From assembly GCF_000026545.1 (NCBI RefSeq), contig NC_011601.1: a DNA stretch of 64,000 bases, one strand, 5' to 3'. Position numbers and translations under genes: made by a program. The notes beneath the pieces are model-generated. The model did not search any database, was not told where the DNA came from, and saw only the letters and a program-made list of their open reading frames with translations. This DNA is from Escherichia coli O127:H6 str. E2348/69. Lineage in GTDB: Bacteria > Pseudomonadota > Gammaproteobacteria > Enterobacterales > Enterobacteriaceae. Within the stretch, counting starts at the first letter, position 1. Each line of letters begins with the position of its first letter. Below are positions 27,581 through 27,947 of this stretch, one piece after another.

Positions 27581-27931
27581 TTGCATCCCTTTCATTTAAT
27601 GAGTTATGTCTTCTCAAATTTCGCGATGCAATAAATGGGCATATATTAGGTAGCATGACCGTTTTAATTATAATTTTGCAACTGAGTTCAAATTATTGCC
27701 CCTCAATCTATGCCGCTTTCATTATTTCAACATTGCCGATCAAAAGAATGCTATCCAGATAAAAACGATTAAATGCGAGAGTGCGACATGCCAGAATGAT
27801 TAATGAAATATCAATATGAGAAAATTACAGATAATTCCATTGTCAGGTTCTCTTCTCATTTTCGTGGTTTAACCACGATTATGTGATTGCCTCCGCAATT
27901 CCTGTCTCTAACTCCCCTTCCTCGCAAAAAC

Positions 27932-27947
27932 TGGCACTCCACGAGCA
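27932..27947 (+). promoter_or_regulatory. candidate sigma-54 promoter upstream of uacT: TGGCAC-N7-GCA with GG-N10-GC spacing
   Basis: Perfect -24 hexamer, GC at correct spacing, about 70 bp upstream of uacT ATG. Confidence 0.3.

Follow-up and report, generated by a model that had tools for sequence, protein, structure and literature searches.

In the hycA/hypA (FhlA) and zraP/zraSR (ZraR) regions, where two sigma-54 promoters stand back to back, the activator sites lie between the paired promoters. At the nifH promoter of Klebsiella pneumoniae, C residues at -15 to -17, immediately before the GC of the -12 element, depart from the consensus and lead to a weak closed complex, and transcription needs both the activator and a DNA-bending protein, in this case IHF. 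Lee, Newman and Keasling are said to have found in 2005 that prpBCDE combines PrpR and sigma-54 with CRP-dependent catabolite control. In E. coli, the anaerobic pathway by which gut bacteria degrade urate is represented by the ygeW-ygfT cluster, whose sigma-54 sites OS29 to OS32, belonging to xdhA, ygeW, ygfK and ygfT respectively, were mapped by ChIP-seq (PMC4591121). The genes listed in the YgeV iModulon (PMC12133099) include uacT and ygfT as well as xdhA, ygeW and ygfK; this iModulon has been described and the expression of ygfT found to be lower in a YgeV mutant (PMC10602906). A massively parallel reporter study published in 2026 reported YgeV iModulon promoters without consistent footprints and called the outcome inconclusive. 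A paper from 2025 (PMC12507026) mentions a native Crp-binding site between ygeV and ygeW as well as repression of the pathway by glucose. Our literature search returned no link of uacT (ygfU) with rpoN or sigma-54 and no YgeV binding motif.

The window, by which we mean the whole stretch of 64,000 nt analyzed here from E. coli O127:H6 E2348/69, matches the chromosome of this strain exactly in reverse orientation; it extends from ygeV to ubiH and contains the cluster genes ygeW, dpaL, ygeY, hyuA, arcC, yqeB, yqeC, mocA, ygfK, ssnA, ygfM, xdhD, xanQ, guaD, ghxQ, ygfS, ygfT and uacT. The urate/proton symporter gene uacT (also named ygfU; 28016-29464, plus strand, RefSeq annotation) is divergent from ygfT (uacF; annotated at 25661-27580, minus strand), and 435 bp separate the ygfT start at 27580 from the uacT ATG at 28016. 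This divergent order was found in five loci by tblastn. The spacer is common to the two genes, and the activator site is probably common to them as well. In E2348/69, ygfK (window 11150-15807) is interrupted by the IS4-like element ISEc13 (transposase at 11846-13219) and the annotation lists xdhD (17965-20835) as a pseudogene that contains an internal stop; the enzymatic side of the urate cluster has thus undergone partial decay here, while its regulatory elements are intact. Since the uacT-side elements are identical in K-12 and E2348/69, data obtained with K-12 apply directly to the locus described here.

A sequence-only reading of this DNA had proposed that a motif of the ygeW spacer recurs near uacT. 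The 23-nt motif ATATCAATATGAGAAAATTACAG was indeed located at exactly 27808-27830 on the plus strand, and its counterpart upstream of ygeW, ATATCAATATGAGA--ATTACAG at 1210-1230 (plus strand), differs from it solely by a 2-nt deletion. Allowing at most one mismatch, the 12-mer ATCAATATGAGA is present three times in the window (at 1212, 1359 and 27810) versus 0.30 expected; all three matches fall within the ygeV-ygeW and ygfT-uacT spacers, and none of 100 shuffles reached this count. The shared motif is real and far beyond chance. Its conserved core, as delimited by an alignment of ten species, is a 13-bp palindrome, TATCAATATGAGA, at 27809-27821 (plus strand), which we predict to be the upstream activator site. 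The ATTACAG tail of the motif is not conserved beyond Escherichia, and only the palindrome is for this reason treated as the functional core.

Written as T(A/C)TCA-N3-TGA(G/T)A, the palindrome has five exact copies in the window versus 0.08 expected. Three of these are found upstream of sigma-54 promoters: the ygeW copy (1211-1223) is 215 bp upstream of the center of the ygeW -24/-12 element (CTGGCACACTTATTGTT, 1424-1440, plus strand, ChIP-seq site OS30, 14.3 bits on the matrix described below), the ygfK copy (TATCATAATGATA, 10880-10892, plus strand) is 183 bp upstream of the center of the ygfK promoter (GTGGTGCGATTGTTGCT, 11061-11077, plus strand, OS31, 14.5 bits) and the third, at 27809, is that of ygfT/uacT. 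Across the 34 kb of the window outside the cluster there is no copy. Just beyond the window, the region upstream of xdhA contains two palindromes with one mismatch each, 21 bp apart and respectively 113 and 134 bp from the xdhA sigma-54 site. If these one-mismatch copies are counted, all sigma-54 promoters of the cluster, namely those of xdhA, ygeW, ygfK and ygfT/uacT, have the palindrome on their upstream side, at distances of about 110-220 bp that fit the range of about 80-250 bp in which a dyad-symmetric site would be sought at any promoter of the same regulon. A degenerate second palindrome, TGCCAGAATGATT at 27789-27801 (plus strand), lies 20 bp upstream of the main one from center to center; its CAGAATGATT is kept in most of alignment A3, and it may be the site of a second activator dimer. 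Tandem palindromes 21 bp apart are also present at xdhA and at uacT of Morganella. The two remaining exact copies of the window are inside coding regions, TATCATCTTGATA in dpaL/ygeX (3055-3067) and TCTCACATTGAGA in yqeC (9489-9501), the latter about 240 bp downstream of the intragenic sigma-54 site IS34 (9729-9745, minus strand).

The same reading had placed a sigma-54-like element between the motif and uacT. TGGCAC is present at 27932-27937 and GCA at 27945-27947, within the predicted -24/-12 promoter of uacT (CTGGCACTCCACGAGCA, 27931-27947, plus strand, assigned by spacing and conservation). The announced GG-N10-GC spacing, with GG at 27933-27934 and GC at 27945-27946, is borne out and is kept in all ten species, and the distances given as about 100 bp from the motif to TGGCAC and about 70 bp from GCA to the ATG amount to 101 and 68 bp. 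The flanking AAAAC and the trailing T also agree with the extended consensus. Following the rule that transcription begins 19 nt after the motif center (PMC4591121), the uacT start is predicted at 27958 (plus strand), which would give a leader of 58 nt; an Rfam search of this leader for known RNA elements returned noise only. Taken on its own, the string TGGCAC-N7-GCA is not beyond chance, as it occurs four times in the window versus 1.02 expected and 5 of 100 shuffles reached four.

A matrix scan had been proposed by the sequence-only reading as a check. On a matrix built from 135 ChIP-bound sites (PMC4591121), the uacT element scored 5.24 bits and ranked 184th in the window, below every one of the bound sites (minimum 6.64); matches as strong occur about 2.9 times per kb, and about 1.25 of them are expected in the spacer. 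The element departs from the consensus solely at -15/-14, where G and A replace T and T; every other informative base is consensus. These two positions account for the whole shortfall: with both masked, the element reaches 12.7 bits, ranks sixth in the window and exceeds 61% of the bound sites, and a hypothetical TT would bring it to 16.1 bits. An A at -14 is found in only one of the 135 bound sites. As a side result of the scan, the best and fourth-best matches of the window were located inside xdhD, at 20399-20415 and 19687-19703 (15.6 and 14.0 bits), about 600 and 1300 bp upstream of xanQ; both are absent from the published K-12 ChIP-seq lists.

Measured sigma-54 binding in this spacer is that of the ygfT side. 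In K-12 ChIP-seq, performed on cells grown in M9 minimal medium and not under urate-inducing anaerobic conditions, no uacT-side peak was found at high or low stringency; uacT is also absent from the K-12 sigma-54 genomic SELEX report, and the RpoN ChIP-exo regulon list includes ygfS and ygfT and not uacT. The sole ChIP-seq peak of the spacer is OS32, with a minus-strand motif 36 bp upstream of ygfT (PMC4591121) and about 300 bp from the uacT candidate. A sigma-54 ChIP-chip region of 1.6 kb (Cho 2014) spans the whole spacer, at a resolution too low to discriminate between the two elements; its center falls between both candidates, which we discarded as evidence of a second site and consider weakly suggestive, since regions with a single site show offsets as large as about 190 bp. 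By themselves, the binding data and this one sequence argue against a sigma-54 promoter at uacT.

The bound ygfT site itself (TATGCCCATTTATTGCA, 27627-27643, minus strand; K-12 peak 3029005, motif center 3029008) scored 6.18 bits in E2348/69. It has a canonical -12 (TTGCAT), kept across the species in which ygfT is beside uacT, and only one G at -24. The position of the first G is taken by a pyrimidine (TATGCCC in E2348/69, and nCGCC or nTGTC elsewhere), and this -24 defect is retained in all species with ygfT beside uacT as well as at the aegA/ygfT-like gene of Morganella (TGTGCCCGGTTATTGCA). About 50 bp upstream of the ygfT promoter center, a further conserved block, TTTTGCrA...TCAAA (27674-27695), was observed, whose columns T27674 and TTG27676-27678, together with several neighbors, vary little or not at all (alignment A3); the block gave no match to the CRP, FNR or IHF consensus.

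The upstream regions of uacT were aligned from ten species: E. coli, E. albertii, Citrobacter sp. R56, Pseudocitrobacter, a Citrobacter-like metagenome contig, C. freundii, Raoultella, Serratia oryzae, Kluyvera and Pluralibacter. In this alignment, where the mean column identity is only 42%, three blocks are invariant: T.TCA...TGAGA, which is the core of the palindrome, TGTGA-N7-C.C..TT, and CTGGCA-N8-GCAT, whose spacer varies freely in sequence and is fixed in length (alignments A1 and A3). The third block has the pattern expected of a functional -24/-12 promoter, with conserved contact bases and a free spacer. Nine of the ten species have A at -14; C. freundii has C there, a base also found in glnAp2. 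Several orthologous elements score within the range of bound sites (C. freundii 9.5 bits, Pluralibacter 9.2, Raoultella 8.0), and the palindrome is fully symmetric in S. oryzae and Raoultella (TCTCATTATGAGA) and in Morganella (TATCAATGTGATA). Variation within Escherichia agrees with this picture: five further sequences revealed 71 variable positions among the 435 of the spacer, and the 46 nt of the three uacT-side elements contain a single variant versus about 7.5 expected. This variant, C or T at 27937, is consensus in both forms, and the palindrome is free of variants. One genome labelled E. coli SCPM-O-B-8794 (locus L080, 1576-2010) differs at 62 of the 435 spacer positions (14%) and has a UacT that is 99% identical, which suggests recombination or a divergent Escherichia lineage; its spacer is useful as a conservation test within the genus.

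The elements were also followed to loci with another gene order. In Morganella, uacT is unlinked to ygfT and is preceded by a canonical sigma-54 promoter (15.7 bits in M. morganii and 13.7 bits in M. psychrotolerans), with two palindromes 21 bp apart about 170-190 bp upstream in M. morganii. Pluralibacter uacT, which follows a porin gene rather than standing beside ygfT, keeps all three blocks. In Erwinia sp. CGal63, 20 nt separate ssnA from the following uacT, and the sigma-54 element of ygfK lies upstream. As judged from these arrangements, the regulatory elements follow uacT rather than ygfT. Among the non-E. coli loci (116 kb in total) there are 16 exact palindromes, versus 0.27 in shuffles, and 15 of them are in urate-cluster spacers with sigma-54-like elements; the pattern was partly derived from the uacT alignments, and the four Pluralibacter copies and the one Erwinia copy, being independent of these, are the sole validation. 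The four exact palindromes of the Pluralibacter cluster are all in spacers with strong sigma-54 elements (one at ygeW, 218 bp upstream of the element, two at ygfK/yqeB and one at ygfT/permease), and the Erwinia palindrome is upstream of ygfK. Two side observations concern Pluralibacter. Its ygfT is divergent from a second Xan_ur_permease gene and not from uacT (locus L091, 20236-20759), in a spacer with the layout seen in E. coli, where two palindromes (20467 and 20489) are followed by a CRP-like site (20573) and a sigma-54 element of 14 bits (20620). Directly before its uacT is a gene for a protein of about 430-470 aa (L091, 8457-9737), perhaps also present in Morganella (L089, 8173-9573); it gave a faint OprD-family porin match in Pluralibacter and no Pfam match in Morganella, and may encode an outer-membrane urate channel.

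The second invariant block coincides with a candidate CRP site, TGTGA-TTGCCT-CCGCA (TGTGATTGCCTCCGCA), at 27882-27897 on the plus strand, between the palindrome and the uacT promoter. Its center is about 49.5 bp upstream of the -24/-12 center and at about -68.5 from the predicted start. The site matches TGTGA-N6-TCACA at 8 of 10 positions (TGTGA and CCGCA), about 0.2 such matches being expected by chance in the spacer, and the columns that are invariant in the ten species (TGTGA, C27894, C27896 and TT27899-27900) are CRP consensus positions. Comparable sites are present at ygeW (TGTGATCAACCCCACA, 1366-1381, plus strand, 9 of 10 positions) and at ygfK, where a perfect core (TGTGAGTTCATTCACA, 10983-10998, plus strand, 10 of 10) is again situated between palindrome and promoter, as are CRP-like sites at three Pluralibacter promoters. 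A CRP-like sequence was additionally observed inside yqeC (TGAGAATTACGTCACA, 9789-9804), about 59 bp upstream of the intragenic sigma-54 site, which faces yqeB; its relative position is the same as at ygeW, ygfK and uacT.

This comparative and co-expression evidence, that is the ten-species core, the Morganella and Erwinia arrangements, the palindromes and the YgeV iModulon, supports the proposed sigma-54-dependent co-regulation of uacT and ygeW. The reading we favor, and hold to be probable, is that uacT is controlled by YgeV, sigma-54 and probably CRP, with an activator site common to ygfT. The sigma-54 polymerase would transcribe uacT from the conserved, off-consensus -24/-12 element at 27931-27947, starting near 27958. 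An enhancer-binding protein would act from the palindrome (27809-27821), some 124 bp before the promoter, and might in addition use the weaker site at 27789-27801. CRP-cAMP bound at 27882-27897, between palindrome and promoter, would probably exert catabolite control, bend the DNA, or do both. The divergent sigma-54 promoter of ygfT has the same palindrome about 180 bp on its upstream side, so that a single activator site is probably used by both genes. With G and A at -15/-14, closed-complex binding would probably be weak until inducing conditions are met. Directly observed are the sequences with their conservation and their recurrence in the cluster; the identity of the bound proteins and the start of transcription at this element are inferred. 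Such weak polymerase binding at uacT is plausible by analogy and would explain why a strongly conserved element is absent from ChIP data collected in M9.

A more elaborate version of this model, which we regard as doubtful, holds that uacT and ygfT form a conserved pair of deliberately defective sigma-54 promoters that are regulated at the polymerase-binding step, uacT being deprived of TT at -15/-14 and ygfT of one G at -24. The uacT promoter would then stay empty until CRP and YgeV recruit or stabilize the polymerase, as opposed to the textbook situation of a polymerase already bound and waiting, and the A found at -14 in nine of the ten species would have been selected for this behavior.

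According to a second alternative, the palindrome serves ygfT only, the uacT-side TGGCAC-N7-GCA is no promoter, and uacT is transcribed by sigma-70, perhaps with CRP acting through the TGTGA site. The binding data and the low matrix score agree with it, the motif is no less an upstream element of the divergent ygfT promoter, and activation of a sigma-70 promoter by CRP would likewise be compatible with a conserved CRP-like site some 68 bp before the putative start. However, no sigma-70-like hexamer pair was found in 27560-28060, and the candidate hexamers downstream of GCATG are poor by eye and belong to a region that is not conserved in the ten species. The invariant columns are instead the exact contact bases of sigma-54 at the exact GG-N10-GC spacing, and uacT of Pluralibacter and Morganella keeps the elements, or a canonical promoter, without an adjoining ygfT. 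We therefore judge this alternative unlikely.

A third possibility accepts the sigma-54 promoter and assigns the palindrome to a regulator other than YgeV, for instance another factor responding to purines or anaerobiosis, or a nucleoid protein. The literature that we found contains no YgeV-DNA binding data; the motif is AT-rich with an ATCAA core resembling an IHF half-site, and one of the xdhA palindromes overlaps an FNR-like sequence, TTGATACGTATCAC (locus L003 upstream of xdhA, 4645-4658, minus strand), that matches TTGAT-N4-ATCAA at 9 of 10 positions and is of interest because the urate pathway is anaerobic. Compared by eye with the IHF consensus WATCAANNNNTTR and with that of FNR, however, the uacT and ygeW copies both lack the TTR of the former and the TTGAT left half of the latter, and both readings of the motif were rejected. 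The position of the palindrome, about 110-220 bp upstream of sigma-54 promoters, is the usual one for an enhancer-binding protein, and its dyad symmetry would fit binding by a helix-turn-helix dimer. YgeV combines a PAS domain, a GAFTGA-containing sigma-54 interaction domain and a Fis-type HTH, and it is the sole regulator encoded in the E. coli and Pluralibacter clusters. As the only such protein encoded in the cluster, it is the most likely binder and, by association, the obvious candidate for the palindrome. A tblastn search found no YgeV within the 3-kb flanks of the uacT loci searched in other species, and the YgeV homologues among the matches listed were near-identical E. coli proteins only. 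On balance, a regulator other than YgeV seems improbable to us. Finally, that the motif and the sigma-54-like string are mere chance resemblances in an AT-rich spacer, devoid of function, agrees with the chance-level frequency of the string alone but is incompatible with the motif statistics, the ten-species invariance and the depletion of Escherichia variants, and is effectively refuted.

If control by YgeV, sigma-54 and CRP is correct, the promoters of this regulon would share a layout in three parts, palindrome, CRP-like site and sigma-54 promoter, and the urate importer would be placed in the same regulatory circuit as the urate-degrading enzymes of a pathway that is topical for gout and hyperuricaemia. 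The DNA site of YgeV is not described in the literature that we found, and the 13-bp palindrome is our prediction for it. Such a placement of the importer would be of use to those who engineer strains to consume urate, and in the interpretation of negative sigma-54 ChIP results at weak promoters. The predicted sigma-54 promoter of uacT, likewise not described so far, appears well supported and would represent an ordinary type of regulation and no new mechanism.

When compared to the known promoters of its own cluster, uacT shares with xdhA, ygeW, ygfK and ygfT the upstream palindrome and the YgeV iModulon listing, and with ygeW and ygfK also a CRP-like site between palindrome and promoter. These four are bound by sigma-54 in K-12 ChIP-seq, in contrast to uacT; xdhA, ygeW and ygfK reach 10-14 bits on the published matrix, whereas uacT is off-consensus at -15/-14 and ygfT at -24. 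The hycA/hypA and zraP/zraSR spacers (paired ChIP-seq sites OS27/28 and OS38/39) resemble ygfT/uacT in having two back-to-back sigma-54 promoters, but there each promoter is close to consensus and has strong occupancy, while ygfT and uacT are both weak matches and one of them is detectably occupied. Instead of the C residues and the IHF of nifH, G and A at -15/-14 and a CRP-like site are found at uacT, and the weakness of the uacT closed complex is inferred only from negative ChIP. Although the CRP input of uacT is deduced from a conserved 8 of 10 match only, unlike that of prpBCDE, the two systems would be alike in being catabolic and in combining a sigma-54 promoter, a dedicated enhancer-binding protein and an input from CRP.
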